64,000 nt of DNA, from the IMG/VR virus record IMGVR_UViG_3300035670_000137, positions 12,782 to 76,781 of that record; one strand, written 5' to 3'. This document shows, in pieces, positions 33,416 through 50,878 of the stretch. Position 1 is the stretch's first letter. The number at the start of each line of letters is the position of its first letter. A program made the position numbers and the translations under genes. Source of the stretch: a virus. Below the pieces are notes generated by a model. That model was given only the letters and a program-made list of their open reading frames with translations, had not been told where the DNA came from and made no database searches.

Positions 33416-33421
33416 ATCAAC

Positions 33422-34210: not shown

Positions 34211-34439
34211 AATCTATATGAAAACATACGAATATACTCTAACATACTTAAAAGCAAATAAAGAAAGAACTAGATATATTGCTGGTTCTGAGGGTAAATA
34301 TGTTCAGATAATGCAACATACCCTTGATGTAGTGGCGTACATATATGAAAAGCAACCTATAGATGTACTAAACGATTTTGCAGATGTTAAATTAGATAAA
34401 TAATGGCCGAGTGGTGAAATTGGTATACACAAGGGACTT

Positions 34440-35544: not shown

Positions 35545-35621
<77 letters not shown>

Positions 35622-35641
35622 GATAAAGAAAGGGGCATAGT

Positions 35642-36169
35642 ATGGCAAATATATTCTTTGCCTCAGATCATCACCTGGGGCATGAAAACATGCTCAAGTT
35701 TAAGAGAAATGATGATAGTCCACTAAGGGATTTTTCACACGTCGATCATATGAATGAATATATCATAGAACGACATAATGCTAGAGTTAGACCAGGTGAT
35801 AAAACCTACTTTCTAGGTGATGTAGTTATGTCACATAAGTGGCTATATCTCCTAGATAGAATGAATGGTGAGAAGGTACTGATTAAAGGAAACCACGATA
35901 CTGCTAAACTATCTCAGTATACTCCTTATTTCAAGGATATTCGCGGTAGTCATCAGTTTTCTGGCATTATAATGACTCACATACCAATTCATTCTGAGTG
36001 TCTAGCTAGATGGGGTGTTAATATTCATGGGCATCTACACTACCATAAAATTATGGATCAGTATGGTAGACCAGATAAGCGTTATTACAACGTAAGTATG
36101 GAATGCCTAAAAGATTATACACCGATCAGCTTAGAGGAAATAAAATCTGAACTTGATCTCATGGCTTAA
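35642..36169 (+). CDS. Calcineurin-like metallophosphoesterase
   Basis: SDHHLGH, LGD, GNHD, HGHLH. Confidence 0.9.
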   Translation: MANIFFASDHHLGHENMLKFKRNDDSPLRDFSHVDHMNEYIIERHNARVRPGDKTYFLGDVVMSHKWLYLLDRMNGEKVLIKGNHDTAKLSQYTPYFKDIRGSHQFSGIIMTHIPIHSECLARWGVNIHGHLHYHKIMDQYGRPDKRYYNVSMECLKDYTPISLEEIKSELDLMA

Positions 36170-36280
36170 TCTTGCTATAATATTATTTCTGAAGTGCGGA
36201 AGGCAATATGAATGAGATACTTCGTTAGGCATTCCAAATTTCAGACTTGATTTTGTTAATCGAAGCCTGTATAATATTCA

Positions 36281-37686
36281 TATACACTGAGGAAAGCGAA
36301 TAGCGCTTAACGACGGTTAAGCTACTCGGGCGCAAACGGCGGGTGACGCGTCCTGATATAATCAGACCTCCGCTACGGACAGTTAGCTGCTGACTCCCAA
36401 ATTGGTCACTTAGTGTATAACTTAGTAGTGTGGACTAGTGCGAAGCAGGTATGAAGTGAGGCTCAGGCGGAACGGAGTCTGTGAACCGGAGTGAAGCATA
36501 CTAAGATAGCTTTATTAGGGAGCTTAATATCCTAGTACGGTGGTAGTAGTCGGAACTACTCCAACGCTTGAAGGTAAGTGCTTGCAGAACTGGTGTGACA
36601 ATCGGTCAATATTCTGCATAAACCTTCATTAGTTAGTACGATAAGCCTGTTGGGGTATTCAGAATATCCCGTTCAAAAGGTTCAAATCCTGGTTAAGCAT
36701 GGCGTGCTGAACAGGGCAAGATAAACTAACTAATATAAACCTACTGATGATCTGAGGTGGTAACTCAGTGAAACGGCAGACAATCTAGCGAATAGTCGCG
36801 AACTACTCAATATAGTTCCCTACATAGCGGTCTGTCCGTATAGGTAAACCAAGAAGTGTGGATAACTGCCATGCCACTAGCGAGGAAGTCAACGCTCCTC
36901 AATATATGACAACGATAGTACGTTGCATTGACCCAAGGGTTAGGGGCTATAGTTCAAAATGGCCTGTCTTACTTAACCCGATCCCTATCGGCATATGTTG
37001 CAGAATAATATAGAACCTTGGTAAAACGGGTTGTGCTATCCGGCCTATAGAAATAAGAGGATAGCATTGGTGAGTACTATAAGTTCGCAAATGTTCCTAT
37101 AGTAAAGGACGATTGGAAATCGACCACCTGGTCATAAGAGCCGAGACCTTATAAATAGGCAGTTTCCGTGGCTTGAAGCGGATTAGAGTGGGTATTGAGA
37201 GTACAGACACTATAAACAAGCAACTCTCTAGTGGTGCAACCCACTATTGAAAAACTAATAGTGCAACATTACGGAATTTAAGCACTTTAATCCTAGAAAT
37301 TCCTAGGCCATGCCACAAGCCGAATATAACTGTAGATTGCTTGAGTCACCCGTACTCAGACACACACGGTAGGATACTGTCGACGTCCCGTAGAGAAGAG
37401 TTTTAAACTAGTAGTGTTTCTGCTTCTATCTGACTACGAAAAACGGTAAATCAGTTTCAGATAACGTGTAACTCCGTATGAAACGTCTATTAGATGCCTT
37501 TGTACTTTGAGCATTAATCAAATGTTGACTAGCCTGACGCTGGCTACGAGTCCCGTAAGGACAGTACGTAGTGATGGGATCCTGACCAAGTCACTAAAAT
37601 CTTGTGGTAAGGGGCAAAGGCTGGATATTCGTATCCGGCCTTTGTTTTCTCTAGGTATTATTAGTTTAGTACCTAGAGAAAACAAA
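36281..37686 (+). ncRNA. ~1.4 kb tract of structured RNAs without credible ORFs
   Basis: Follows promoter at 36248; series of stem-closed domains; includes a hammerhead. Confidence 0.6.
36739..36845 (+). ncRNA. Hammerhead ribozyme (type I)
   Basis: Stem I ACCUA/UAGGU, core CUGAUGA, stem II CUGAG/CUCAG, GAAA, stem III ACGG-CAGAC/GUCUG-u-CCGU, cleavage triplet GUA. Confidence 0.8.
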
Positions 37687-37697
37687 GGAGAGCCTAA

Positions 37698-37919
37698 ATG
37701 ATTGAATGCATGAACGCTAAAGAATATATTACTTTCGACCCTAAATTGCAAGAACACCTCCAGGCTTACTACACTCTCCACTATCGTGGAAAGCAGAGTA
37801 ATCTGAGATTTCGCTTGGAGAAACCCTTTACTAACGTAGTTGCTATGATGCAGCATAAGATCTGCGAAATGCAACTGCAGCAATCCATTAAAGGATTTGC
37901 ACTCGACCTGAGGTATTAA
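37698..37919 (+). CDS. Hypothetical protein
   Basis: AGGAG RBS; ORF. Confidence 0.65.
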   Translation: MIECMNAKEYITFDPKLQEHLQAYYTLHYRGKQSNLRFRLEKPFTNVVAMMQHKICEMQLQQSIKGFALDLRY

Positions 37920-37920
37920 T

Positions 37921-38673
37921 ATGCTAGTCAAACTGCTATCGGATCTACACCTGCACGGTAATAATCCGTTTCGCTATGTCGATCACGGAGAGCACGTTTG
38001 CATCCTAGCAGGTGATATTTCAGAAGGTATGCATGGTGTGGAATGGGCGCTGGCTCGTATTCCTCGCCATATCCAGGTACTGTATGTTCCTGGCAACCAC
38101 GAGTATTACGGGCAGGACTATCCTGCTCTTAATGCTCGCTTTGCACATCATAATACCTTAGGTACTCATGTGCACGTTATGTTGAATTCAGTATTTACCA
38201 AAGACAATTGGGACGTAGAATTTGTAGGAACTACGCTTTGGTCGGACTTCAACCTGTATGACAACCCTGTACGCCATGCTATTTCTTGGAAAATGGGTCT
38301 TAATGACTCTAGGTGGATTAAGTGCAATTCGCATACGATCACGCCTCAACACTTCCAGAATTGGAATAGCCAGGCATTAGTGTTTCTGAAGCAAGTTGCA
38401 GAAACCCCCACAAATAAGTCTCGTGTACTTGTAACACACTACTGCCCCGATTTGTCGGTGGCGCCCAAGTACCGAAACGATCCGCTAACTCCTGGATTTG
38501 CTACGCGTATTCCTGTGGATACGCATGAAAAGTTCCAGTACCATTTCCATGGGCATACTCACTCTAGTATGAATTACGAGTATAACTATGGGACTAAGGT
38601 AGTCTGTAATCCTAGAGGATATGGTTACGAAAATATGTCAGGATTTAATGAGGAGTTAGTGTTAGATATTTGA
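37921..38673 (+). CDS. Metallophosphoesterase
   Basis: SDLH, AGDI, PGNHEYY, HGHTH, NPRGY. Confidence 0.9.
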   Translation: MLVKLLSDLHLHGNNPFRYVDHGEHVCILAGDISEGMHGVEWALARIPRHIQVLYVPGNHEYYGQDYPALNARFAHHNTLGTHVHVMLNSVFTKDNWDVEFVGTTLWSDFNLYDNPVRHAISWKMGLNDSRWIKCNSHTITPQHFQNWNSQALVFLKQVAETPTNKSRVLVTHYCPDLSVAPKYRNDPLTPGFATRIPVDTHEKFQYHFHGHTHSSMNYEYNYGTKVVCNPRGYGYENMSGFNEELVLDI

Positions 38674-38683
38674 AAGGAGTTCT

Positions 38684-39268
38684 ATGGAACCCATGTCTAA
38701 CTACTACTTTAACGGTAAGTGTTATGTAAAGCGAAGTAAATGGCCTAGACGAATCAGGGCTTCAATATCCGCCCTGTTCGTCGCCTTTGCGACAACTTTT
38801 ACATACGAACCAAGTTATGCACAGTATCAATTATTCAAGAGTGATAAAGTTAAGTATGTGGAATACATACAAGACAATAACCCTAGAATAACAGGATCAG
38901 AAGCTCGAGAAATAGCAATAGCAGCTATTAAATGGGCGCAAGAGTTTAAAGTGGATGAAAAACTGCTTCTAGCGATGGCTAAAGTAGAGTCCAATTTTCA
39001 TAAGCATGCCATTAGTTCATCAGGAGCATATGGCATAATGCAGGTAATACCAGTATGGCACAAGCCCAAGATCTTGGAGGCACGTAACAAGCTAGGAAAT
39101 CCAGAACTTTTTAATATAAATACAAACCTATTCCTAGGTGCTTGGGTATTTAGAGACTGTACGTTAAACAGTACAACTTTGAATAAAGCATTACTCTGCT
39201 ATTCTGGACAAACACCAGGCTACGACCAAAAGGTTTTGGCGGAGTACAATGAGCTTAAAAAATTATGA
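38684..39268 (+). CDS. Lytic transglycosylase (SLT domain) with N-terminal hydrophobic anchor
   Basis: AKVESNF...SSSGAYGIMQV...N...GA. Confidence 0.88.
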   Translation: MEPMSNYYFNGKCYVKRSKWPRRIRASISALFVAFATTFTYEPSYAQYQLFKSDKVKYVEYIQDNNPRITGSEAREIAIAAIKWAQEFKVDEKLLLAMAKVESNFHKHAISSSGAYGIMQVIPVWHKPKILEARNKLGNPELFNINTNLFLGAWVFRDCTLNSTTLNKALLCYSGQTPGYDQKVLAEYNELKKL

Positions 39269-39625
39269 CTTGATTTTATTTTACATCAAGTGTATAATAT
39301 TATTTTAAGTGAGGAAAACATGGCAAAGGCTTATACTAAAGAGTTTTTGATTGATGTTTATATGCACAAGTATATCAAGTGTGGATTTATTCCTATTGAG
39401 GACTTGTGCAACCTCGAAGAATTAGCTATCAAATTCTACGATAAAGTGGGACGAGATGAATTCAGAAAATACGCAGATGTCACCCCAGAAAGAATCAAAG
39501 ACTATAACCTACAGGCTAGTGTATAGTGATGAATCTGAAGTGATTAAAACATTCGCTTCTGAAAAAGAAGCTGCATGGTTTATTCACAATGAAGGTGATC
39601 ATATAGTATATTGCAATAGAATTGT

Positions 39626-39701
39626 CGCAGGCTAGAGAAACGGCATCTCGCCACCCTCATAAGGTGGAGGTACCTGGTTCGACTCCAGGGCTCTGCAACC
39701 A
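39626..39701 (+). tRNA. tRNA-Met(CAU), initiator-like
   Basis: C1:A72 mismatch, anticodon CAT, CCA; acceptor stem slightly irregular. Confidence 0.8.
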
Positions 39702-39703
39702 AT

Positions 39704-39773
39704 AGAGATAGATCAGGGATCACTAGACTTTCATAAGGTTTACAGTTGGGATCGTTACCCAATGTCTCTACCA
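39704..39773 (+). ncRNA. Non-canonical short tRNA-like RNA, anticodon CAU
   Basis: AGAGATA/TGTCTCT acceptor + ACCA, minimal D arm GATC/GATC, loop TTCATAA, atypical T loop. Confidence 0.65.
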
Positions 39774-39781
39774 GTTTTTGT

Positions 39782-39857
39782 TGGCAAGTAGCTCAGAGGT
39801 AGTAGCGATGCGCTGTTAACGCATTGGTCGTAGGTTCGATCCCTACCTTGCCAGCCA
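39782..39857 (+). tRNA. tRNA-Asn(GUU)
   Basis: Cloverleaf, CCA. Confidence 0.93.
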
Positions 39858-39859
39858 CA

Positions 39860-40302
39860 GAACATAGGTGCCTCCGGCTATGTTGTCCATCCCTAGGACA
39901 TTATCCGCAACGTGGGCGAAAAATAGATATGTAGGCAGGGTTCATATCTATCCTTATTAAGAACTGCTGAGGGTCGTCGCCCAACAGTGAAAAGACTAGC
40001 AGAACATGAACTTTAGGGAGTTCTATAGCTATCCCATTCGCAAGAGTGGGTAAATTAAACCTGATCCTAAAGCGTGTCAGATTTCGTGTTCCCACACGAC
40101 AACAGACCTAATCAGGACACATCCGAACTAAGACGGTAGTACGGCCTCCGGGAAGAGTTGCTCATATGTAGCGTAAAAATTCTTAGTCAGGTTTAATTTA
40201 TAAGTGTGGCCCTACCCAAGGGGTGTGAGACAGTGGTTGGAAGGATCTCACTGCATCTAGGAGTCATCCGGTGACACGGAACCTAGTAAACCTACCACAC
40301 AG
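39860..40302 (+). ncRNA. Structured tract between tRNA genes
   Basis: No credible ORF; several hairpins. Confidence 0.45.
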
Positions 40303-40309
40303 GATTTTT

Positions 40310-40384
40310 GGGGGATTCGTATACTGGGTATTACTCCTGTTTTGCAAGCAGGAAAAAGCGGATCGTAACCGCTATCCTCCACCA
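40310..40384 (+). tRNA. tRNA-Ala(UGC)
   Basis: G3:U70, anticodon TGC, CCA. Confidence 0.9.
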
Positions 40385-40395
40385 TAGTTTTAAAT

Positions 40396-40479
40396 CGGAG
40401 TGTCGGCCAGCCTGGTAGGTCACTAGCTTTGGGAGCTAGCGCGAAAGCATCGCACGTTCGAATCGTGTCACTCCGACCA
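40396..40479 (+). tRNA. tRNA-Pro(UGG) with extra arm
   Basis: CGG acceptor start, anticodon TGG, variable hairpin GC-GAAA-GC, CCA. Confidence 0.9.
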
Positions 40480-40485
40480 ATCAAA

Positions 40486-40561
40486 CCCAACCAAACTAAT
40501 CTGGTGAAAGTGACGGTCTGAAAAGCCGTAAAGCGAGGATCGAAACCTCGGGTTGGGACCA
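40486..40561 (+). tRNA. tRNA-Phe(GAA)
   Basis: Cloverleaf, CCA. Confidence 0.88.
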
Positions 40562-40563
40562 AG

Positions 40564-40636
40564 TACGGTGTAGTATAAAGGCATTATGACGGTCTCCAAA
40601 ACCGCTGATGGGGGTTCGATTCCCTCCACCGTAGCC
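40564..40636 (+). tRNA. tRNA-Trp(CCA)
   Basis: Cloverleaf, CCA. Confidence 0.9.
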
Positions 40637-40704
40637 ATAAAAAATTTTGACTTGATTTATATTATCGAATAGCGTATAATATTACTTTAAGTCGCAGTTC
40701 TATT

Positions 40705-40924
40705 AAATAAATCAACTGCTGCGTAGTGAGAATTTAGGATGAGGCCTATAACCCCTCTACTTTATTCGCCAGGGTTACTTCATATACTATGAGCCGATAC
40801 TTCCTGCAATAGAAGGGGAAGAAAGGGGAAGAAAGTGACGAAGTCTCCACTACATATGTCCGTTAAGCTGCGTTCGTTATAGCGCGCAAAGAACCTTGCA
40901 CGACATTTCTCAGTTGATTTATTT
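40705..40924 (+). ncRNA. Y-RNA-like element 1
   Basis: 14-bp terminal stem, then CTGCG...TTACTTC...TTTCT-C motif; upstream of Ro60 gene. Confidence 0.7.
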
Positions 40925-41020
40925 AGTATTGCTGCGTATATAACAGTTACTTCATCTCCAAATAATGATGGAAGGCGTGATGGCCTCCAGTCTCTGTTAT
41001 AACCTTTTTCTCAATACTAA
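40923..41020 (+). ncRNA. Y-RNA-like element 2
   Basis: TTAGTATTG/CAATACTAA stem, CTGCG, inner stem TATAACAG/CTGTTATA, TTACTTC, TTTTTCT-C. Confidence 0.75.
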
Positions 41021-41024
41021 TCTT

Positions 41025-41099
41025 TTTTCGCTGCGTCTTATACAGTTACTTCAATCTATGGTGATTACAACAATACTGTATATAACTTTTCCTCGAAAA
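41025..41099 (+). ncRNA. Y-RNA-like element 3
   Basis: TTTTCG/CGAAAA stem, CTGCG, inner stem TATACAG/CTGTATA, TTACTTC, TTTTCCT-C. Confidence 0.72.
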
Positions 41100-41106
41100 T
41101 TCCAAA

Positions 41107-42660
41107 ATGACAAAACTAAATCCAAAAACACAAAACACTATTGAACACGCTATCTCGGCCAATGGCAATCTTCAGATTGCTAAAGATCAGGGACAGACGT
41201 TCTTTGAGACCCTTGTCGGACATATGTACGGCAAGGATCGTTTCTACACTAGCAATGAAGATGTTGCAAAGCGTTTGCTTTCCGATATCCAAGTCCTCGT
41301 TCGTAAGAATAAGTTGGACTATATTGCTAATGTAATTCTGTATGCTCGTGAAAAGGTTTTCATGCGGTCGATGCCTATTCTAGCTACAGTTTACTTTGCT
41401 AAGGCATTGCGCGATTCCAAAGTATCCTTTCCACAACTTCGTAATCTAGTTTCTTCGGTCATTCAACGAGCTGACCAGGTAACTGATATGTACGCTGTTG
41501 CCTTAGAGGTCTTTGGAGATAAGCGTAAAGTGCCCAATGCCATCAAGCGCGGTGTATCGGACGCCATGAATAAGTTTACCGTATATCACTACGGTAAATA
41601 TAACCGTGAAGCCGGTGTCACATTCAAAGATGTGGTGCGTATCGTACATCCAGAACCTCGCGATGACAACCAAAGTCAGACTTTCAAGATGATTCTTGAA
41701 AACAATCTGCCCGTGCCATATACGTGGGAAACTGAACTCTCCCGCAACGGTCAACTTCCGAAAGAAGTTCAAAAGACTAAGGCTCAGCTATGGGCCGAGC
41801 TCGTACAATCCGGCAAACTCGGATATATGGCATTACTTCGTAACCTTCGTAACATAGTTCAGTCAGGGGCTGACGTTATCGGTGAGGTGGCGAAACGGCT
41901 AGTCGATGCAGAACAAGTTCACATTTCTAAGCAGCTTCCCTTCTCCTACCTAAAGGCTCTAGACGCCGTTAAGGACGCCCCCGCAAAGCTGAAGTGGGCA
42001 GTAAGTGAGGCTCTTGATGTATCCTGTGCTAACGTACCTGCACTAGGAAAGAAAGTGTGGATCATTGTCGATGGTTCCGGCTCTATGTTGGGTTCCCATT
42101 ATGGACGCATGGGACGCAATGAGGCGCTAGGTGAGTGTCCTTTCCAGACCGCGGCTGTATTTTGTGCAGCCCTGGCTAAATCAAATCGTGATGCTAGTGA
42201 ACTAGCAGTTACCATCTTTAGCGACAACGCTCAGATGGTTGATCTGAACCCTCGTGATTCAGTATCCACAATGGTGGAGAACCTCACGAAGAAAGTTCAA
42301 GGTGGTGGAACTAATCTACAGGCAGCCTTGAATATGAAGTCACGGTTAGGTTTTGAGCCAGACACAGTTGTAATCCTCTCAGATATGGAAGTTAACCAAC
42401 TGTCAACTGGATCGTATGGTGGAGGCTATTCTTGGAATAGACAAGACAATACGATTGCAAACATCAGCAAGATGTTTGACAAGAACTGCTATAAAGTAGC
42501 AGTAAACCTAGCTAGCGGCGTTTCAACGCCGGTTCCAAAAGAGCATGGCTTTGTCCAACTAGCAGGGTTTAGCGAGCGAATCTTCGCCCTAATCCCAGAA
42601 TTGCGAAATAGTCGGACTACGGTTGAAACACTGTTCAGTCGACCATTTGCAGCAGTTTAA
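41107..42660 (+). CDS. Ro60/Rsr-family TROVE-domain RNA-binding protein with vWA domain
   Basis: DRFY, YARE..FMRSMP, QRAD, D..R..HP.P, PYTWET.LS, GYMALLRNLRN, LPF, VDGSGSM (MIDAS), GGGTN, ILSD. Confidence 0.93.
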   Translation: MTKLNPKTQNTIEHAISANGNLQIAKDQGQTFFETLVGHMYGKDRFYTSNEDVAKRLLSDIQVLVRKNKLDYIANVILYAREKVFMRSMPILATVYFAKALRDSKVSFPQLRNLVSSVIQRADQVTDMYAVALEVFGDKRKVPNAIKRGVSDAMNKFTVYHYGKYNREAGVTFKDVVRIVHPEPRDDNQSQTFKMILENNLPVPYTWETELSRNGQLPKEVQKTKAQLWAELVQSGKLGYMALLRNLRNIVQSGADVIGEVAKRLVDAEQVHISKQLPFSYLKALDAVKDAPAKLKWAVSEALDVSCANVPALGKKVWIIVDGSGSMLGSHYGRMGRNEALGECPFQTAAVFCAALAKSNRDASELAVTIFSDNAQMVDLNPRDSVSTMVENLTKKVQGGGTNLQAALNMKSRLGFEPDTVVILSDMEVNQLSTGSYGGGYSWNRQDNTIANISKMFDKNCYKVAVNLASGVSTPVPKEHGFVQLAGFSERIFALIPELRNSRTTVETLFSRPFAAV

Positions 42661-42757
42661 GATAAGGGCGCGTTAGCAATAACGTGCCCTTTTTCTTTCT
42701 TGATTTCATTCCTTATAAAGCGTATAATATCTTTATTGAGTGACATTTGGAAAGAAA

Positions 42758-43234
42758 ATGAACATATTCATTCTTGATGATGACGTAGAGCAGTCTGCCA
42801 AGTATCACTGCGATCAGCACGTTAATAAGATGATCCTAGAGGCAACGCAGATTATCTGTACAGTACGCACTTTAAAAGGTTGTAAGGATAGTCCATATAA
42901 GGCTACACATCCTAAGCATCCTTGCACTATTTGGGCAGGGTCTGCACTAGAGAATTATATTTATACACTAGACTACGCTTGTTACCTTAATGAAGAAGCA
43001 AAGCGTAGGTATAATAAGAAAGTTAACCATAAGTCTTATGACGTACTAATGGATCTAACTTTTCCTGACTTTGAACTAATTAACAGAACACCGTTTGCTA
43101 GAGCAATGCCGGAACAGTTTAAACGTATTCCTGATACTGTAGAAGCGTATCGTGAATATTACAAAACAAAAGAGTTTGCTACCTGGAAAACAGGCAAACC
43201 TAATTGGATAGCGGATATACGTACCGCCTCCTAG
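42758..43234 (+). CDS. Pyrimidine-dimer glycosylase/DenV-like family protein
   Basis: MNIFIL...AKYHCDQHV.KMILE..Q...YK.TH..HPCTIW...AMP...AYR.YY. Confidence 0.75.
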   Translation: MNIFILDDDVEQSAKYHCDQHVNKMILEATQIICTVRTLKGCKDSPYKATHPKHPCTIWAGSALENYIYTLDYACYLNEEAKRRYNKKVNHKSYDVLMDLTFPDFELINRTPFARAMPEQFKRIPDTVEAYREYYKTKEFATWKTGKPNWIADIRTAS

Positions 43235-43327
43235 GGCAAATATGACGTATCGACAGTAGTGTCCGAATAGCTACCACCCCTTCAGATGAAAAGTATCTGA
43301 CCAGACGCGGGTAACCTGGAAGAATTC

Positions 43328-43422
43328 GCTCCTTAGCACTGGTGTGCGGCGAACCCTTATAAAGTTCGGAGACTGGCTAGATGGGCTGGAACGGCTGAGA
43401 TCGAAACTCAGGAGGAGTACCA
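43328..43422 (+). ncRNA. Atypical tRNA-like gene, apparent UAU anticodon, long extra arm
   Basis: GCTCCTT acceptor, GCAC-TGGT-GTGC D arm, CGAAC-CCTTATAAA-GTTCG arm, CTGAG-ATCGAAA-CTCAG T arm, ACCA. Confidence 0.7.
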
Positions 43423-43795
43423 TGCAAACTGCATTTGTTGTAACTATGATAGCTAAAAGATCCAACTATCACTATGTACTAGGTGTATTCTCTAATGAGA
43501 CTTTAGCTATACTAGCTGGAAGTAGAGAAGAAAGAGTATACGAGGGTGAATTTCAGTATACAATAGATAAACTAGAGGTAGATAGGTATGCTAAATAAAC
43601 TAATGTTTAAGATAAAAGATCGTGAAGTTGAACTAACATATGATGAAGCTAAAGCATTGTGGAAGGACCTGGATCTGATTTTTGGTGTACGAGTACCTAA
43701 TATGCCGGTATATCCTCCGACTGTGATGCCAACGTACCCTCCGTACACTGGAGATCCTGTAAAACCTTTTGTAACATGGTGTATGTAAGATTAAT

Positions 43796-43870
43796 TCTGG
43801 CATAGCTCAGTGGTAGAGCAGTGTGTTGATAACGCATTGGTCGCTAGTTCAAATCTAGCTGCCAGAACCA
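43796..43870 (+). tRNA. tRNA-Ile(GAU)
   Basis: Cloverleaf, CCA. Confidence 0.93.
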
Positions 43871-43871
43871 A

Positions 43872-43963
43872 GGAAGAGTGGCAGAGTCCGGTTTATTGCA
43901 ACAGTCTTGAAAACTGTCGGTCATGAAAGTGGCCCGTGAGTTCGAATCTCACCTTTTCCGCCA
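43872..43963 (+). tRNA. tRNA-Ser(UGA)
   Basis: Class II cloverleaf, GCCA. Confidence 0.95.
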
Positions 43964-43984
43964 AATAACCTATTGGAGATTATC

Positions 43985-44548
43985 ATGTCCCTAGTACTAG
44001 GCCTAGATCAAGCCGGTACTCCCCATCGTTGGATTAATATCGAGGAAGCTGCCATTTATTACGCTAAAGAAACTGTGGCGTGGGAGGCAGGCAGTTCTTT
44101 TGTAACACTGCGTGGGGGTGTAAACGCAAAGTCCCACTGTAGATCAGAACTTAATATTAATTCAATCATTGCAGTAAAGGGCGATGATTACTTTAGTAAG
44201 AATTACGACACTAACATATCTATTAGTCGTAGAATGCTGTTCAAACGTGATAGAAATATGTGTGCATATTGTGGATCAATATTGCACGATAAAGAACTAG
44301 AACTTGAACACGTAACGCCAAAGTCAAAAGGCGGAGCCACTAGCTGGACTAATATTGTTAGTGCTTGCCGTCATTGTAATAGTAAAAAAGATGATCGTAC
44401 ACCTGAACAAGCAGGTATGGAATTGTTATATGTTCCTTACATCCCTAACAGGCACGAAGCATTTATTCTAGCCAATAGAAATATCCTGGCAGATCAAATG
44501 GCCTTCCTTCTCCAGGGTGTACCAAAACATTCAAGATTGCTGGATTAG
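43985..44548 (+). CDS. HNH endonuclease
   Basis: RD..MCAYCG...EHVTPKSKGG..SWTNIV.AC..CN..K.DRTP. Confidence 0.92.
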   Translation: MSLVLGLDQAGTPHRWINIEEAAIYYAKETVAWEAGSSFVTLRGGVNAKSHCRSELNINSIIAVKGDDYFSKNYDTNISISRRMLFKRDRNMCAYCGSILHDKELELEHVTPKSKGGATSWTNIVSACRHCNSKKDDRTPEQAGMELLYVPYIPNRHEAFILANRNILADQMAFLLQGVPKHSRLLD

Positions 44549-44613
44549 CTCAGCGGTAGAGCAACGCCCTTACAAGGCGAAGGTCGTTGGTTCAACCCCA
44601 ACATCCAGTACCA
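44539..44613 (+). tRNA. tRNA-Val(UAC)
   Basis: Cloverleaf, CCA. Confidence 0.93.
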
Positions 44614-44617
44614 AATT

Positions 44618-44692
44618 AGCGGGATAGTGTAGTTGGAAACACAGCAGACTTTGACTCTGTTATCTCAGGTTCGAACCCTGATCTCGCCGCCA
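44618..44692 (+). tRNA. tRNA-Gln(UUG)
   Basis: Cloverleaf, CCA. Confidence 0.92.
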
Positions 44693-44907
44693 AAAAGAAC
44701 TAATTATGAAAGACTATTTACCAGTATCACATTTTATGCATGACTATCCACCAACTAAAGCAAAGCTGATGCTAGTAGCATTAGTAGGTAGTGAAGAATT
44801 AGCTATAAAGTGGTGGAATAGTCCAAATGAAGGTTTTAATAAACTTTGCCCGAAAGACGTACCTATTGAAGAAGTCTATAGTTACCTCCTAGGGCATCTA
44901 CAAAGAT

Positions 44908-44983
44908 AGTACCGTGGCCTGAACGGTGAGGGAGCGGATTGCAAACCCGCAGTATGTCGGTTCGAGTCCGACCGGTACTTCCA
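44908..44983 (+). tRNA. tRNA-Cys(GCA)
   Basis: Cloverleaf, U73-CCA. Confidence 0.92.
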
Positions 44984-44989
44984 TAAATT

Positions 44990-45067
44990 GGCACGTTAGC
45001 ATAGATGGCCTAATGTACTTGCCTGTCACGCGAGAGATCATGGGTTCGAATCCCATACGTGTCGCCA
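44990..45067 (+). tRNA. tRNA-Asp(GUC)
   Basis: Cloverleaf, GCCA. Confidence 0.93.
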
Positions 45068-45091
45068 TTAACTTTAGTGAGGAGTATTATC

Positions 45092-46129
45092 ATGGCAGAA
45101 CCAAGAAAGATAGTACCTACTAAAGCTGGAAGTGAGCTTCCTAAGGAAGTTACGCTCCAAGATGCAGCTACACAGGAACTAATTGCAGAAAATGCAGTTA
45201 CAAATCCTAGTGAACTAAACGCTATAGTAGTTGGTTTAGGACGTGGCAAGGTTGAAGATCCTAGTAAACCAGTGCCAACACAAGTAGTAGAATTTAATAG
45301 TCTTTTAGAAGAAGATGCAGCTGCTGCTGGTTTATCCGGTGGTGGTAGTGATGGGGGGCATTCTTTTGTATCCCTTCTGCGAATAGTAGAAGGATTAGAC
45401 CCCACAAATTATAATTTCCCAATAAACGGTACAGGCGTTCCACCAGAAATACGTGGAGAAGTACTAGCTCTATTACCTGATATTGATGATATTGAAATAC
45501 CTTTAATACCTGACACTCCTGTTATTCCCGATCTACCGGACGTACCCGATACGCCAGAAGATCCAGAAGATCCAGAAGATCCAGAAGATCCAGAAGATCC
45601 AGAAGATCCAGAAGATCCAGAAGATCCAGAAGATCCAGAAGATCCAGAAGATGAAAAAGGTAATAACGGCCACGGCAATAATACAGACGGACAGGATGAT
45701 AATAATCCTGGCCAAGGCGGTGGCGGACCTAACTCTGACCCTAAGGATGGACAAGATGAAGACGAAGGAAATAAAGGTAACCAAGAAGACTCAACGCCAG
45801 GAGTCAACGGCGGAGGGAATAATTCTAGTAATCCTAATCCTAGTGAGCCTTCTAGTCCTCCTGATATAGATAAGGGTGGCCCTAAAGGTAACAATGGCTG
45901 GGGTAACGGGGATCAGGATGCACCTGGAAATAGCCTAGAAAATAATAATGCAGAGAATAACCAAAACGGTACACCAGCTCCAAAACTTAAGTTTGAAGAC
46001 ATGGTTGCCCCGCAGGATGACATATTTGCAGGTGGCAGTAACTCTAGCCACGGTAATGATTGGAATATGCCTGATTTGGATACTAATATTCATGCTAAAG
46101 TAGTAGAACAGTTAAAAAATAGTCATTAA
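45092..46129 (+). CDS. Acidic low-complexity protein with T1SS adhesin retention-module-like segment
   Basis: DP...LLEEDAAAAG...GGHSFV.L.RIVE...P..Y.FP; (PED)11; two GNNGxGN blocks; GAGGAG RBS. Confidence 0.7.
   Translation: MAEPRKIVPTKAGSELPKEVTLQDAATQELIAENAVTNPSELNAIVVGLGRGKVEDPSKPVPTQVVEFNSLLEEDAAAAGLSGGGSDGGHSFVSLLRIVEGLDPTNYNFPINGTGVPPEIRGEVLALLPDIDDIEIPLIPDTPVIPDLPDVPDTPEDPEDPEDPEDPEDPEDPEDPEDPEDPEDPEDEKGNNGHGNNTDGQDDNNPGQGGGGPNSDPKDGQDEDEGNKGNQEDSTPGVNGGGNNSSNPNPSEPSSPPDIDKGGPKGNNGWGNGDQDAPGNSLENNNAENNQNGTPAPKLKFEDMVAPQDDIFAGGSNSSHGNDWNMPDLDTNIHAKVVEQLKNSH
45554..45652 (+). repeat. Perfect 9-bp tandem repeat CCAGAAGAT x11 (coding PED)
   Basis: Counted directly. Confidence 0.97.
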
Positions 46130-46178
46130 GACTTTTCCAGGCGTAGAAATACGCCTGGATTTTCCAAAGGAGTTTATT

Positions 46179-46331
46179 ATGATTGCAGAAGTGCAAGAAG
46201 AAAATGGTGAACTTTTTATAGAAATCCCAGAGGAAATGCTCAAAGAATTGGGCTGGAACATTGGTGATGAGCTTCTTTGGGAAATCCAAGAGGATAACAC
46301 AATAGTTTTAAAACGTGCGGGTATCGTATAA
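46179..46331 (+). CDS. AbrB/MazE-like small DNA-binding protein
   Basis: GELFIEIPEEMLKELGWNIGDELLW...IVLKR; AGGAG RBS. Confidence 0.7.
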   Translation: MIAEVQEENGELFIEIPEEMLKELGWNIGDELLWEIQEDNTIVLKRAGIV

Positions 46332-46390
46332 TGGTATTACTGTAGCCTTCCAAGCTTCAGACGTCAGTTCGATTCTGACTACCCGCTCCA
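46317..46390 (+). tRNA. tRNA-Gly(UCC)
   Basis: Cloverleaf, UCCA. Confidence 0.93.
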
Positions 46391-46498
46391 ACAGATAAAA
46401 ATTACTGACTTGAAAAACATTTCATAAGAGTGTATAATATTACTTTAGATGGGAGAGTTCCTGTCTAAAGCATTTTAACTTAAACTAAAGAGAAAACA

Positions 46499-47861
46499 AT
46501 GACTACAATGTACTTTGGACATATTTCGGAAGACGTGCTGGAAATGAGTGATGGCTCCTGGGAACCGTTCTACGATAACTACGGCAATGCCTACGAGTTT
46601 CAACTTACCATTGAGGAAGATCAAATTACTTTGACTGATTCTATTGGACGCCATGTACCAATCGGGCTGGACGCCGTAGCGTCGATGTCAAGGGCTGTAA
46701 AACAAGCTAAGAAAGTGGCTAAGGCATACACCAAGCTGCAAGATATGCAAGATACGGAAGTTATGTTCTTCCTATGATATTTTTTGAATCTAATGTAAAT
46801 CCACTAAAAGAACTGATTGGGTCTATACCATCAGACGGAATAGTTATTGCTAAAGAATCTTTAGATAAGATAGCACTATTCTTCAGTTCTGGGGGTATTA
46901 GATTCGAGAGTTATGGAGAAGTACTACACGCACTACACGCATTTTGTGATTGGTATAACCTAACAACACTAGAACCATACAACGATACTCTAATCTTAAA
47001 AAGGATAGACAATGGCCACCAAATCTCGTAGCAAGCATCAAGAAGGTCTTTACAAGGCTTATCAAGCACAGAATCGCCAAGCAGCTAATCGCAAGCGTAA
47101 GCTTACCAAGCTGGCAAAGCAGTTCCCAAACAATGAGCAAATTACTCTAGCTCTGAAGAATATTTCTTACCGCCGTGGAACCCCTAAGACTTCTATGTGG
47201 TCACATACTAGCAAAGCATGGGCCCAGATGAAAAAGGAGTTCAGTAAGCCTGGTCATGGTTCTCAGCGTAAGGTCTCCGAGAAGGAGATGTTCAAGCTGC
47301 GTGCGCGAGCGCACGACGCTGAGGGGAATCTGATTTGGAATTCCTAAGCGCATACGCATTCTTCGCCCTAACAACCTCAATTGCCTCACTTATTATCCTA
47401 GTAGGTCCGGTAATTGAGGAATTAAAATCAGTTAAACCAGATAGTCCAATACTAGATAGTCCGTTTATAACATATACTACTTTTATGGTACTATCTCTGT
47501 TAATTGCTCCAATTATTTTTATTGCCTGTATCTTTCCCTCATCTAACGAAAAGTTTAAAATCGGACTGCTAAATAGCCTAAAGGATTAAATATGCCCATT
47601 CTGACATTCACCTATACTAAGGATACTGGAGAGGTTAGTAACCGAACCCTATTCGCTTTGGAACAGCCTGGCGCAAAATACTTCGGTATTGATATGTCAG
47701 AACTAGATCTTGAGGATCAAGTAGCATTCTCAGTAGATATGGATAAGATTGAAGAAGAAAAGCAGCAAAAGATTAAAGATCTGATGGCTCAGTATGATAT
47801 TAAACATAGTTTTCGTACATTCCTGCCATCAAAAATGTCAGACGTTACTATTGAAGATTAA
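46499..47861 (+). CDS. Operon of five small hypothetical proteins (46499-46777, 46774-47031, 47012-47347, 47335-47589 membrane, 47592-47861)
   Basis: Overlapping or abutting ORFs after promoter at 46410. Confidence 0.7.
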
Positions 47862-47869
47862 GTGATTAA

Positions 47870-48256
47870 ATGAATAGTAAGGATAAGGGTAATGTAGGTA
47901 TTAGTGCAGCTATATTCTATTTTACAAAATTAGGATACACGGTATCTATACCTCTTACAGATAGCCAGAGTTACGATATAATAGTTGATATAGACAGTGT
48001 ACTGTATAAAGTACAGGTAAAGTATACTTCTATCAAAGCTACTTCTGGAAGTTATGTACTATCTCTAAGATCAATATCAGGAACTACTAAAAAATCTTAT
48101 GCAACTATAAAAGATCTAGATATTGATTATGTATTTGTATATACAGCTGCAGGGGATCAGGTATTAATTCCAATAACTGAAATAACTAATACTTCTTCCC
48201 TTACATTAACCAGAGATATTATTAAAAAATATAGTGGGTTGGATGAGCTGGCTTAA
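47870..48256 (+). CDS. PD-(D/E)XK endonuclease of the group I intron-associated (I-Ssp6803I-like) family, free-standing
   Basis: K.KG..G...GY.VSIP..D...YD.IVD....LYKVQVK. Confidence 0.82.
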   Translation: MNSKDKGNVGISAAIFYFTKLGYTVSIPLTDSQSYDIIVDIDSVLYKVQVKYTSIKATSGSYVLSLRSISGTTKKSYATIKDLDIDYVFVYTAAGDQVLIPITEITNTSSLTLTRDIIKKYSGLDELA

Positions 48257-48328
48257 ATCGGCGTCCTGCTAAGACGTTGGCTATGGTGAACCCATGGTCC
48301 GAGAGTTCGAATCTCTCACCCACTGCCA
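48233..48328 (+). tRNA. tRNA-Ser(GCU)
   Basis: Class II cloverleaf, GCCA. Confidence 0.93.
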
Positions 48329-48379
48329 ACTAACATAAGGAGAATATCATGCGATTGTAGATAATTACAGGAGCATAAT

Positions 48380-48727
48380 ATGTCTAGAACTTATAGAAAT
48401 CACACTTTCTCACATTGGTTCAACCCTTTGGAGAAGTTAGTAGATGGGTGGGAACCCGGCAATGATATTTGCTATGTTTGGGGTAGTACTGTCCGTTCGT
48501 GGAAAAAGATCGACCCTAAATCGGAGCAAGGTCGTAAAATCCTAGCGAAAGCTAAAAGAGATAAGACCGTTCGTTTTAAGGAACCAGGTCCTGCATGGTT
48601 TCGTAACCTTTTTGAAGAGCGTCCTTTGCGTCGTTCTTCAAAGCGTGAGCTGCAGAAGTTTATGGCTGATGAGGACTACGAACCAATCATTGACGCAAGG
48701 CAGCGTAAGCGTGTCTATTGGACCTAG
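48380..48727 (+). CDS. Basic hypothetical protein
   Basis: MSRTYR-type phage ORF; AGGAG RBS. Confidence 0.7.
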   Translation: MSRTYRNHTFSHWFNPLEKLVDGWEPGNDICYVWGSTVRSWKKIDPKSEQGRKILAKAKRDKTVRFKEPGPAWFRNLFEERPLRRSSKRELQKFMADEDYEPIIDARQRKRVYWT

Positions 48728-48847
48728 TATGGGAACGACTACACTACATAACCGAAAAGAAGCTGAAGTGTCCGGAACTTGCAGTGGAAGGCGTAGGAAG
48801 ATAGGGTCGGCGTTGGTTCAATCCCATTCCCATACTTTGGCCTACCA
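48720..48847 (+). ncRNA. tRNA-like RNA with over-long acceptor stem and 3' ACCA
   Basis: AGTATGGGAA/TTCCCATACT stem, TGG-TTCAATC-CCA T-loop, ends ACCA. Confidence 0.6.
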
Positions 48848-48849
48848 TA

Positions 48850-49156
48850 TTCGTTGATGGCAAAGTAAAAGTATTCAAGACGGGAGGGGCAGTGCCTCCC
48901 CTGGTCCACCAATAAGTAGCTATAAGAGTGACACAGTAGGGTATTAGCAGACGTCCTAGTACCTCTGGAGTAATCATAAACTTAGCTACTTATTAATGGG
49001 CCAGTAATAGATTCGATTGGGTATGAATAGCAATGCTGGAGAATCGTCAAGAAAGACGTAAAAATCACAATAATAAATGCAAACGATTCTACGTTCGCTC
49101 TAGCCGCTTGAGCTAGATAAGGTTTCGGGACTGTCCCTTATTACCAATACAGTCCC
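48850..49156 (+). ncRNA. ssrA: Permuted (two-piece) tmRNA; tag ANDSTFALAA
   Basis: Acceptor piece ends CTGGTCC-ACCA (48911); hairpin intervening segment; coding piece starts GGGCCAG (48998) giving G3:U70; tag GCAAACGATTCTACGTTCGCTCTAGCCGCTTGA at 49079-49111. Confidence 0.92.
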
Positions 49157-49450
49157 ATTTTATAAGTACACTATGTAGGCGAGGGTCCGGTTCCCATAAG
49201 CACTCTATCGCTAGTATTTATCGAGAATACTATACGAGTTTAGTGTACTTTTAAAATTTAAATGGAGTAGTTATGGACGATAAACTTATAGAAAAGTATG
49301 TGGAGGATGAGACTAAAATAGCTACTATAAACGGTCTACTAATGGCGCAAGCCATATGCTCCAGAAAGTTGCAAGATGTATATAGTAGAGATATTCTTGA
49401 TATTATGAGAGTAATAGCTCTATCTATAGAAGATATAAAGAATAAATAAC

Positions 49451-49526
49451 GCTACTTTAGCTCAGTTGGTAGAGCACCGCACTTGTAATGCGGGGGTCGT
49501 CAGTTCGAATCCGACAAGTAGCACCA
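49451..49526 (+). tRNA. tRNA-Thr(UGU)
   Basis: Cloverleaf, CCA. Confidence 0.93.
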
Positions 49527-49527
49527 T

Positions 49528-49603
49528 ATCCCATGAAGTGTAATGAATTTGCACGCAACGCTACGGACGTTGAAGAACGGTTTGATTCCGGCATGGGGTG
49601 CCA
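49528..49603 (+). tRNA. tRNA-Arg(ACG), degenerate T arm
   Basis: CAACG-CTACGGA-CGTTG anticodon arm, GCCA. Confidence 0.8.
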
Positions 49604-49608
49604 AATAT

Positions 49609-49682
49609 GGGGGTAAAGCTTTAAGGTGAAGCAACTGGCTTTTAACCAGTAGAACAGGGGTCACTACCCTGTACCCCTACCA
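49609..49682 (+). tRNA. tRNA-Lys(UUU), atypical T loop
   Basis: ACTGG-CTTTTAA-CCAGT arm, ACCA. Confidence 0.85.
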
Positions 49683-49811
49683 TTTAAGGAATTATACGGG
49701 TAAGACGTCTTATCGGTATAATTTGAGCCGGGGAAGTGGAATCTAGTAGTGACCGGCACTAGATCTATTGGATAAATAGTACATGAAAGAATTCCACCCT
49801 AAATTAACAAT

Positions 49812-49887
49812 GCGTGCTTAGCTCAGCTGGTAGAGCGGAACGTTGCCAACGTTCAGGTCGCAGGTTCGAACCCTGTAGCCCGCGCCA
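49812..49887 (+). tRNA. tRNA-Gly(GCC)
   Basis: Cloverleaf, CCA. Confidence 0.9.
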
Positions 49888-49901
49888 AACACATACAAAA
49901 T

Positions 49902-50008
49902 TATACGCTGCACTTATAAGAGATACTTCATAAGTTCGACTCTTATATCCGGGGCCACTATCCCGGATACGCCGTTGGTGGCATACTCTTATTACCTTTT
50001 CTCGTATA
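49902..50008 (+). ncRNA. Y-RNA-like element 4 with YrlA-type tRNA-mimic domain
   Basis: Same G-CTGC / ATACTTC / TTTTCT-C frame; contains T arm ATAAG-TTCGACT-CTTAT, loop-closed stem ATCCGGG/CCCGGAT and D-like hairpin GCC-GTTGGT-GGC. Confidence 0.78.
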
Positions 50009-50018
50009 TACCAAAATT

Positions 50019-50357
50019 ATGAAACTATATATCGCCGTATTAGATGAAGTACCAGACCATATGGTTCCTACACTAGTAGCTCACACTGTATTAGGTGCAA
50101 ATGAAGCCTTTAGATTTTATCCTGCGTATCAGGAATGGTTAAATACGTCTTTTAAGAAAGTAGTACTAAGAGTTAATCGTAAAGAGTTTCAAAAGATAAC
50201 GGAACTTGGTGGAGATAAAGTATATTTAGGGTATGAAAATACTACTCTAAATGCTATATACTCTTGTGCTATAGTACTACCAGGTACTCAGGCCAACGTA
50301 CTTAAATTTGCCAAAATGTGGAAACCTAAGTATGAAGACAATTTTCCTAGATATTGA
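50019..50357 (+). CDS. Peptidyl-tRNA hydrolase Pth2-like protein
   Basis: KLYIAV...LVAH...EWL...KKVVLRV pattern. Confidence 0.6.
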   Translation: MKLYIAVLDEVPDHMVPTLVAHTVLGANEAFRFYPAYQEWLNTSFKKVVLRVNRKEFQKITELGGDKVYLGYENTTLNAIYSCAIVLPGTQANVLKFAKMWKPKYEDNFPRY

Positions 50358-50802
50358 CGGCGTACTAAACAATACAGCTACTTACATATATAATAGACAA
50401 CAAAGCCCTAGTAAAAAGTATATAGGGTACAGCCATAGACATATGGATGAAGTAGACCCTAGGTTGCTAGGGTTAGTGCGATACATAGTAGATGAAACAG
50501 GCGCTAAGATAGTAATATCTTCTAGTTGGAGAATAATCCATACGCAGAATGAAATTGCACAAGTGTTTGCATATAATGGGTGGCTAGACGCTCCTATTAT
50601 AGATATGACTCCTAAGTCTATGGACGCTTTTAGAGGAAATGAGATAAAGGCTTGGTTAGATAGCGATGAGTACACTACTAAATACGCTATTTTAGATGAC
50701 GGAACAGACTTTTATGAGCATCAGCCCCTATTCCGTACAGATGCTACAGTAGGACTTACTTTTATAATAGCTCAGAAAGTAATAGAATTTCTCAATAATT
50801 AA
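50332..50802 (+). CDS. HAD phosphatase of the RNA-repair-associated (Swiss Army Knife) type
   Basis: IFLDIDGVLN, IVISSSWR, RG.EI..WL, YAILDD. Confidence 0.85.
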   Translation: MKTIFLDIDGVLNNTATYIYNRQQSPSKKYIGYSHRHMDEVDPRLLGLVRYIVDETGAKIVISSSWRIIHTQNEIAQVFAYNGWLDAPIIDMTPKSMDAFRGNEIKAWLDSDEYTTKYAILDDGTDFYEHQPLFRTDATVGLTFIIAQKVIEFLNN

Positions 50803-50803
50803 T

Positions 50804-50878
50804 GGTGCTTATAGTGTAATGAGAGCATTTGTCTCTGTGAAAGACAAGGACTGAGATTGAAACTCAGTAGGCACCCCA
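50804..50878 (+). tRNA. tRNA-His(GUG)
   Basis: G-1, C73, anticodon GTG. Confidence 0.88.

Follow-up and report, generated by a model that had tools for sequence, protein, structure and literature searches.

The DNA considered here is a viral stretch of 64,000 nucleotides (the window, meaning that stretch at its full length) taken from IMG/VR record IMGVR_UViG_3300035670_000137, and the subject is the region at 35642-50878, in which genes related to RNA care lie among transfer RNA (tRNA) genes. An earlier note had proposed that a transfer-messenger RNA (tmRNA), Ro60 with Y-like RNAs, several tRNA mimics, a PTH2-like protein, a HAD phosphatase and two metallophosphoesterases together make up an integrated counter-defence against ribotoxins. 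The tmRNA and these protein genes are all present, at or near the positions that the note gave, which leaves the question of whether they form one integrated system or are separate add-ons to a tRNA island, the answer that we favour. The features concerned, by position in the window, are listed below.

30883-50878, + strand: tRNA island, with 24 tRNA genes for all 20 amino acids (ARAGORN)
35642-36169, + strand: metallophosphoesterase of 175 amino acids (aa), phrog_547 (E 1e-46), PDB 1xm7 (E 6e-6)
36283-37650, + strand: structured non-coding RNA tract of 1.37 kb, free of open reading frames (ORFs), between the two phosphoesterase genes
37921-38673, + strand: calcineurin-type metallophosphoesterase of 250 aa, Pfam Metallophos and Metallophos_2, phrog_1649 (E 9e-41)
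40652-41099, + strand: promoter and three tandem Y-like RNA units, ending 7 nucleotides ahead of the Ro60 start codon
41107-42660, + strand: Ro60-type protein (TROVE and vWA domains), PF05731, VWA_2, phrog_850
48849-49111, + strand: circularly permuted (two-piece) tmRNA, RF04321, 98 bits versus a gathering score of 47
49902-50008, + strand: Y-like RNA unit 4, with the frame motif at 49908 and the fold, 81% identical to its counterpart in the complete relative G001
50019-50357, + strand: protein of 112 aa with a predicted PTH2 fold, phrog_5822, overlapping the HAD gene by 26 nucleotides and not found in G001
50332-50802, + strand: standalone HAD_SAK_2 phosphatase of 156 aa, Pfam PF18143

The source is an uncultured T5-like phage with a genome of ~110 kb, represented by an IMG/VR contig of 76.8 kb, 64 kb of which are in the window (estimated completeness 73%). 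Its backbone is T5-like (large terminase, DnaB-type helicase, primase, NAD-dependent DNA ligase and thymidylate synthase), its 175-aa phosphoesterase is orthologous to the 'probable phosphoesterase' of phage T5, and its cluster of ~20 tRNAs, placed early on a T5-type backbone, is what characterises a T5-like tRNA island. When the 15-kb stretch was compared with cultured phages by megablast, no close relative was found, only two short tRNA-sized matches. Metagenomic relatives were recruited with the helicase, whole records were searched and the tRNA regions were then compared gene by gene. In what follows, G000 is the record containing the window and G001 is a complete metagenomic relative of 112 kb (its locus is L001), which is syntenic with the window over 30-53 kb. 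Five relatives have a tRNA island, some of the records are fragmentary, and two, G001 and G005 (98 kb, with terminal repeats), are complete. Backbone proteins are 54-70% identical across the clade and 54-63% in the case of G006. Two wider samples from IMG/VR, of 79 viral Ro60 loci and 80 viral PTH2-like loci, served for counting neighbours within 10 kb.

The part of the island that stays constant is its core of tRNA and tmRNA genes. Nineteen of the 24 tRNA genes lie within 35642-50878, a tRNA-Met (35545-35621) is found just ahead of it, and 23 of the 24 score above the Rfam gathering score (the last one at E 3e-7), while the five clade relatives have 17-23 tRNAs each. The tag frame of the tmRNA reads ANDSTFALAA followed by a stop, and its homologue in G001, also permuted according to ARAGORN, has the tag ANDERYSLAA. 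A permuted tmRNA is present in four of the five relatives (G001, G004, G005 and G006) and is kept wherever the island is whole. No match to SmpB (PF01668) was found in G000, G001 or G005, and the SmpB of the host would therefore have to serve this tmRNA.

Around this core, the content of the island differs even between G000 and G001, and the presence of Ro60, the HAD gene, the gene for the 250-aa phosphoesterase and the PTH2-like gene varies independently in the five relatives. Ro60 is found in G001 (76% identity) and G006 (28% identity), HAD_SAK_2 in the clade only in G000 and G001, and the 250-aa phosphoesterase among near relatives only in G001 (a 28%-identical gene lies elsewhere in G005), while the PTH2-like gene is in none of the five. 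G005 has 23 tRNAs and a tmRNA and does without Ro60 and the HAD. The same looseness is seen farther afield, since the 79 Ro60 loci have HAD_SAK_2 nearby in 2 cases, a PTH2-like gene in 3 and a phosphoesterase of the 250-aa type in 9, and the Ro60-bearing records (n=50) include 4 with HAD_SAK_2 and 5-6 with RtcB. In a second phage lineage (L184/G041), Ro60 and HAD_SAK_2 are found ~5 kb apart, in a stretch with 23 tRNAs. Co-occurrence across relatives, on which the earlier note had staked its proposal, is thus largely lacking for the protein genes.

Neither do the parts form a single block of transcription, as they are spread over at least five separate units, each with promoters and terminators of its own. 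A promoter-like module, TTGATT-N17-TATAAT with similar flanks, recurs at 36247, 39270, 40652 and 42700 (+ strand), where it precedes one unit of the island after another (G001 and G002 also conserve pieces of the module), strong promoter-like sites are found at 46410 and 50899, and a terminator (42664-42691) lies directly 3' of Ro60. Owing to the promoter at 40652 and this terminator, Ro60 and its three Y-like RNAs constitute a unit of their own. Another unit groups the PTH2-like and HAD genes with tRNA-Thr, tRNA-Lys, tRNA-Gly and Y-like unit 4, and the phosphoesterases are in yet others. Interleaved with all these are unrelated genes encoding an SLT transglycosylase, a Pyr_excise glycosylase, a PD-(D/E)XK nuclease, a 356-aa acidic repeat protein and an HNH endonuclease (43973-44548). 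A further HNH endonuclease (34535-35071) and a weak signal of a group I intron (34430-34586) are seen ahead of this stretch. Co-location by itself is what any accessory-gene island would show. The 356-aa ORF (45059-46129, + strand) begins within tRNA-Asp. With its long PED repeats, which are acidic, and its stretches rich in Gly/Asn, it may encode an acidic, disordered protein (DNA-mimic-like) or be no gene at all. It was considered as a hidden ligase or nucleotidyltransferase and rejected, owing to its acidic low-complexity repeats, the lack of a family match and its absence from the relatives.

The earlier note had seen no RNA ligase in the window, which is correct, and there is none either in the whole contig or in the complete relative G001, where a search of the rest of the genome for RtcB and Rnl came back empty in both cases. 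Ligases of the RtcB (PF01139), Rnl2 (PF09414) and Rnl1 (PF09511) types gave no match in the whole of G000 or in G001 (the PF09511 control, RNA_lig_T4_1, matched in no genome, which makes this last negative weak when taken alone), and the same two genomes have no AAA_33 kinase, 2H protein (2_5_RNA_ligase2), RtcA (RTC) or CCA-adding enzyme (PolyA_pol). Searches of G000 by tblastn with viral Rnl1, cRec (a cyclic-phosphate-processing protein) and PNKP-type HAD sequences found none. Since a complete relative is without ligase, kinase, 2H protein, RtcA and CCA-adding enzyme, a heal-and-seal pathway cannot be phage-encoded. The sole ligase in G000 is the NAD-dependent DNA ligase, whose 316-aa ORF is directly followed by an ORF for a homing endonuclease of the GIY-YIG/HNH type (56952-58838, + strand). 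As happens elsewhere among T5-like phages, this DNA ligase may be broken in two or interrupted.

Among the added genes, Ro60 is recognised through both of its domains. The TROVE domain matches PF05731 at E 1.8e-21 (77 bits versus a cut-off of 23), the C-terminal vWA domain matches VWA_2 at E 3e-9 with the metal-site motif DGSGS intact in the translation, and the protein matches phrog_850 at E 5e-46. It does not reach the bacterial Rsr equivalog model (NCBIfam NF041674, 25 bits versus a cut-off of 900) and it is at most 31% identical to any cultured-phage Ro60 among the matches listed, which places it in a distant phage lineage. Phage Ro60 genes, of which our search matched 104 records, are strongly tied to tRNA genes and mostly embedded in tRNA arrays: at least one tRNA is found near 57 of the 79 loci and at least five near 36 (many have 15-27), a tie that extends over the Ro60 sequence clusters (11 of 17 with at least one tRNA, 6 of 17 with at least five). 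The G006 protein belongs to a different lineage from that of the window, because the two are only 28% identical while the backbone proteins are 54-63% identical. Two unrelated Ro60 lineages (28% identity) are thus found in the tRNA islands of one T5-like clade (L178/L035, which is G006, and L162-L204), with the other lineage within the tRNA islands of a large sister group of T5-like contigs, and the Ro60 of the window is closer (39-47%) to the proteins of other contigs (L130-L135), which range from 26 to 350 kb and include two of jumbo size. The presence of two lineages in one clade points, as far as sequence comparison goes, to independent capture or replacement.

The small RNAs that accompany Ro60 share a frame, CTGCR-N8-14-WTACTTC, which occurs 4 times in the window versus 0.27 expected, with three occurrences on the + strand (40932, 41031 and 49908). 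The first two of these are in the tandem units (40705-41099), with fold z-scores of -3.2 and -2.7, and the third is in unit 4, ~7 kb from the Ro60 gene. In the predicted folds of the units, a closing stem is followed by a large internal loop, an inner stem and an insert. The insert of unit 4 is a permuted tRNA mimic, with a T-arm, a closed acceptor-like stem of 7 bp and a D-like hairpin, and this fold is retained through compensatory changes in the G001 homologue. The tandem units are conserved in G001, where the frame is also found upstream of Ro60, and the frame precedes a 45%-identical Ro60 in a contig of 229 kb (L130) as well. The layout of a Y RNA – a place beside Ro60, a terminal stem and a T-arm/acceptor/D-arm module – is accordingly seen in at least one RNA. 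The earlier proposal of Y-like RNAs is backed by the frame, the folds and the adjacency to Ro60 and not by the Rfam Y_RNA or YrlA models, and of its several tRNA mimics at least one, unit 4, was verified. G001 has an extra Y-like unit (L001 14956-15061; G001 105585-105660) between tRNA-Cys and tRNA-Asp, where the window has none, and no unit of the clade scores higher with YrlA than this one (32 bits, E 2e-6, versus a gathering score of 69).

The PTH2-like identity, which in Pfam terms is marginal (PF01981 at E 0.019, 15.6 bits, below the cut-off of 23), is borne out at the level of the fold. The ORF belongs to a family of more than 560 metagenomic proteins with no Pfam domain, the best 120 of which are 56-96% identical to the window protein, and when the family profile (32 members aligned, 58-71% identical to the window protein, with a family length of ~105 aa) was compared with solved structures, three Pth2 entries came out on top (E 0.006-0.05). 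An AlphaFold model (predicted local distance difference test score 88) submitted to Foldseek gave, in its top 13 listed matches, 12 chains of the PTH2 family and one protein of unknown function, over the full length, at template-modelling scores of 0.57-0.69 and probabilities of 0.98-1.00. The modelled fold of the 50019-50357 protein is thus that of PTH2. In Pth2, the glycine-lysine segment after the first strand is catalytic. This segment is not matched here, the GKGK of 1rlk being aligned by HMMER to P-D-Y-M-V-P, and the residues that are invariant in the family are its own (D9, H22, N53, E73, N74, C83 and W101), which suggests that its chemistry may differ, with a different catalytic set.

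With respect to G001, the PTH2-like gene corresponds to an indel of ~320 bp (window 50010-50331 versus L001 18417-18423), which sits between Y-like unit 4 and the start of the HAD gene. The last 8 codons of the gene run into the HAD gene, past the conserved end of the family. Among the most frequent neighbours of the family in the 80 loci are Rnl1 (13), cRec (12), PNKP-type HAD (11) and a phosphoesterase of the 175-aa type (17), often at distances of 7-500 bp. At least one of Rnl1, cRec and PNKP-type HAD is near 22 of the 80 loci (14 of 60 dereplicated groups), versus 3 of the 79 Ro60 loci (Fisher p 4e-5, on lineages that are not independent). A tRNA gene is found near 12 of the 80 loci (at least five near 6), and none of the 80 has Ro60 or HAD_SAK_2 within 10 kb. 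Because the family recurs near PNKP-type HAD genes, which represent another HAD family, its place beside a HAD gene in the window echoes a recurring pairing.

That HAD gene encodes a clear HAD_SAK_2 protein (PF18143 at E 4.7e-27, 95.5 bits versus a threshold of 27.5). Its true start is most likely the ATG at 50332, from which motif I (DIDGV), the SSS stretch and the DD motif follow, with the catalytic motifs intact. Of 18 other HAD records, 6-7 contain a ligase and 6-7 a kinase, and in the five of these that were checked (G062, G064 and G066-G068) the ligase and kinase genes are >20 kb from the HAD. In G000 and the complete G001, HAD_SAK_2 is found together with no RNA ligase or polynucleotide kinase.

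Of the two metallophosphoesterases, the 175-aa protein is, by sequence, a T5 backbone gene. It aligns along its whole length with the T5 protein (31% identity, E 1e-17), is found in G001, G004, G005, G006 and T5, has a weak PdeM match and belongs to a family present in 1307 phage records. Backbone gene though it is, it may also be part of the circle of PTH2-like and RNA-repair neighbours. For the 250-aa protein, a scan for related proteins gave two loci only, not enough to compare neighbourhoods, and its identification as an orthologue of the T5 Ser/Thr phosphatase was rejected, since BLASTP was not significant.

Between these two genes lies the 1.37-kb RNA tract, which has a promoter found by scanning (36247-36275) and would end with a hairpin and then a T-run at ~37617-37650, read by eye and not in the terminator scan list. 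It aligns in blocks that are 68-86% identical with G001 and with the metagenome contigs SXGT01183173 (L048) and SXGU01177292 (L049), and whole stems are swapped through compensatory changes with respect to G001. The possibility that it is coding under another genetic code was rejected, as all three stops are frequent in six frames, and Rfam at E up to 1 (30000-52000) gave no hammerhead, ROOL, GOLLD or other large-RNA family there, only microRNA-like hairpin noise. The window, G001 and L048/L049 agree in the order of 175-aa phosphoesterase, tract and 250-aa phosphoesterase. Inside the tract, 36653-36700 is a tRNA-like fragment, with an anticodon-arm-like hairpin and a GGTTCAAATCC T-loop-like motif, that is called a tRNA by neither ARAGORN nor Rfam. 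Its counterpart, 84-88% identical, is found at 201-249 of L041 and L043, between two tRNA genes at the start of G004/G005.

These observations are best accounted for, with a probability that we put at roughly 55%, by an early-expressed tRNA island with a tmRNA in its core, to which RNA-care genes were added separately, so that the parts share a theme of conflict and are not one machine. The full tRNA set and the permuted tmRNA, as the constant core, would keep translation going when host tRNAs or messenger RNAs are depleted or cut, (i) phage tRNAs replacing those of the host and (ii) the tmRNA, with host SmpB, freeing ribosomes stalled on broken messages. As for the add-ons, whose biochemical activities and link to host defences we infer, (i) Ro60 and its Y-like RNAs would pass structured RNAs that are misfolded or broken on to an exonuclease of the host, by analogy with the bacterial Rsr-Y RNA-PNPase assembly, (ii) the PTH2-fold protein would probably release tRNA from dropped-off peptidyl-tRNA or a related ester and (iii) the SAK-type HAD would probably strip 3' phosphates off RNA ends. 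Their common theme would stem from the conflict over the translation apparatus to which each of them responds. The phage would be unable to reseal RNA by itself, and the lack of a ligase favours replacement and clearing over resealing. What survives of the integrated counter-defence is thus its theme of rescue and RNA healing, which the associations of these families in other phages support, whereas the separate units and independent presence of the parts do not support the integration itself.

A more specific and rather unlikely elaboration is that the island works by ligase-less 'replace and clear', a chain of steps that we infer as a whole. The phage tRNA set would replace cut tRNAs while (i) the tmRNA and the PTH2-fold protein unjam ribosomes and strip peptides off tRNA fragments, (ii) the HAD, and perhaps the metallophosphoesterases, remove 3'-phosphate or cyclic-phosphate ends, which would block 3' exonucleases and can serve as alarm signals (RtcR, for one, is activated by tRNA halves that end in a cyclic phosphate; Hughes et al., 2020, PMC7790460) and (iii) the Ro60-Y ribonucleoprotein delivers the fragments to host PNPase, so that the debris is removed. 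If this were true, the tie of Ro60 to tRNA islands and its double capture in one clade would reflect a clearing role.

Separate addition has to be weighed against three other explanations. That all the parts act together to heal ribotoxin-cut RNA, with a ligase encoded elsewhere or by the host doing the sealing, seems improbable to us, even though all of them lie on one strand within 15 kb, the PTH2-like and HAD genes overlap by 26 nucleotides directly after a Y-like RNA, the PTH2-like family is found near Rnl1, cRec, PNKP-type HAD and the 175-aa-type phosphoesterase in other phages, and L184/G041 has Ro60 and HAD_SAK_2 ~5 kb apart among 23 tRNAs. The independent variation of the parts in close relatives, the scarcity of HAD (2 of 79) and PTH2-like (3 of 79) genes near Ro60, the several transcription units with unrelated genes between them, the complete relative without ligase or kinase, and the presence of the 175-aa phosphoesterase in T5 and >1300 phage records versus 104 for Ro60 all go against it. 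RtcB, as the ligase of the host, takes RNA ends with a 3' phosphate or a cyclic phosphate as its substrate, and in view of this end chemistry a 3' phosphatase would work against RtcB, not with it.

At the other extreme, the T5-like tRNA region might simply be a hot spot that gathers mobile accessory genes, whose RNA look has no common cause. The tie of Ro60 to tRNA islands, far more frequent than that of the PTH2-like or HAD genes, the two unrelated Ro60 lineages (28% identity) in the islands of one clade and the repeated adjacency of the PTH2-like family to RNA-repair genes, which argues for an RNA-related role, make such pure coincidence quite unlikely, although it would readily explain the HNH endonucleases and weak group I intron signal, the unrelated cargo (SLT, Pyr_excise, PD-(D/E)XK and the acidic repeat protein), the resemblance to the T5 tRNA region, in which HNH genes and small uncharacterised ORFs abound as well, and the difference in content between G000 and G001. 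We are similarly doubtful that Ro60, the Y-like RNAs and the phosphoesterases are there for housekeeping, that is, for processing and quality control of phage tRNA precursors, an intron-bearing tRNA and the 1.37-kb tract, without any link to defence. Bacterial Ro60 takes part in the decay of structured RNAs, and tRNA enzymes also handle Y RNAs (Chen et al., 2014, PMC4201824), which would suit such a role, as would the presence of Ro60 among tRNA genes in many phages, the probable co-transcription of unit 4 with tRNA-Thr, tRNA-Lys and tRNA-Gly (there is no promoter between them) and the conserved order of phosphoesterase, tract and phosphoesterase. However, the three lineages that share this order are close kin, and shared descent explains it, no ribozyme or known processing element was detected in the tract by Rfam, and G005, with its 23 tRNAs, does without Ro60, HAD and RNA tract.

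The separate-addition reading itself has to reckon with several adverse points. As for the activities it assumes, (i) the PTH2-like protein, without the glycine-lysine segment, may not be a peptidyl-tRNA hydrolase, (ii) an RNA substrate for HAD_SAK_2 is suggested by the family name and the literature, and the 17 other viral HAD_SAK_2 loci have no Rnl1, cRec, PNKP-type HAD or PTH2-like gene within 10 kb and (iii) Rfam Y_RNA and YrlA (RF02553) gave no match at E up to 1 in 30000-52000 of the window, the best YrlA score in G000 being E 1.04. As for the comparisons, (i) some absences could be due to truncation of the fragmentary records, although in G006 the part that matters here lies inside the contig and not at its edge, (ii) the loci in the association counts are related by descent, so that the counts overstate independence and (iii) the sequencing runs containing the stretch are 4 DNA runs from one study, with no RNA run listed.

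The island nonetheless has implications beyond this one phage. It extends to an ordinary-sized T5-like lineage a gene set described in jumbo phages, shows this set being assembled piecewise, indicates that it can exist without any ligase and raises the question of whether some phage 'RNA repair' phosphatases serve to clear or silence broken RNA instead of helping to reseal it. Possibly more useful than the original claim are the tie between Ro60 and tRNA genes, the phrog_5822 family with its predicted PTH2 fold and the conserved 1.37-kb RNA tract. Owing to the tractability of T5-like phages, each gene is open to tests against known tRNA-cleaving defences.

Work by Burroughs and Aravind in 2016 is said to be the basis of the jumbo-phage framework of Iyer and colleagues. 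In that framework, large tRNA sets, RtcB and ATP-grasp RNA ligases, kinases, a standalone SAK-type HAD, occasional calcineurin-like phosphatases, TROVE with a tRNA-like partner and PTH2 are found together and interpreted as RNA repair and ribosome rescue versus host attacks on translation, with phage tRNAs making up for those cut by tRNA-cleaving defences, and end-healing enzymes generally accompany ATP-grasp ligases (Iyer et al., 2021, PMC7824862). The inference in the earlier note is thus a hypothesis already published there. The same families are found in our island (tRNAs, SAK HAD, TROVE with a tRNA-like RNA, PTH2 and calcineurin-like phosphatases), but in a ~110-kb T5-like genome with no RNA ligase or polynucleotide kinase, with a PTH2-like protein from a divergent family below the Pfam threshold and with a tmRNA, to which that paper makes 0 mentions (PMC7824862).

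Bacterial rsr (Ro60)-Y RNA loci often adjoin rtcB-rtcA (Chen et al., 2014, PMC4201824; Hughes et al., 2020, PMC7790460), and tRNA-like Y RNAs accompany Ro60 in bacteria, with likely Y RNAs beside phage Ro60 too (PMC4201824). Here, as in those loci, small RNAs are directly ahead of Ro60 and at least one has a T-arm, acceptor and D-arm module. Unlike in those loci, there is no RtcB, RtcA or RtcR, the RNAs are below the YrlA threshold with a frame of their own (CTGCR ... WTACTTC), and of the four units one lies 7 kb off the gene. In the heal-and-seal system of phage T4, Pnkp and Rnl1 repair tRNA cut by the PrrC anticodon nuclease. The likeness to T4 is that a phage HAD-type phosphatase could act on RNA 3' ends, in a probable context of tRNA cleavage, whereas kinase and ligase are absent here, the HAD is of the SAK and not the PNKP family, and the full tRNA set points to replacement rather than repair. 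The annotation of the T5 tRNA region (AY587007) shows no tmRNA, Ro60, HAD_SAK_2 or PTH2-like gene, but that region is, like ours, an early one with ~20 tRNAs, HNH endonucleases and small ORFs between them, repeated early promoters and the phosphoesterase orthologue nearby.

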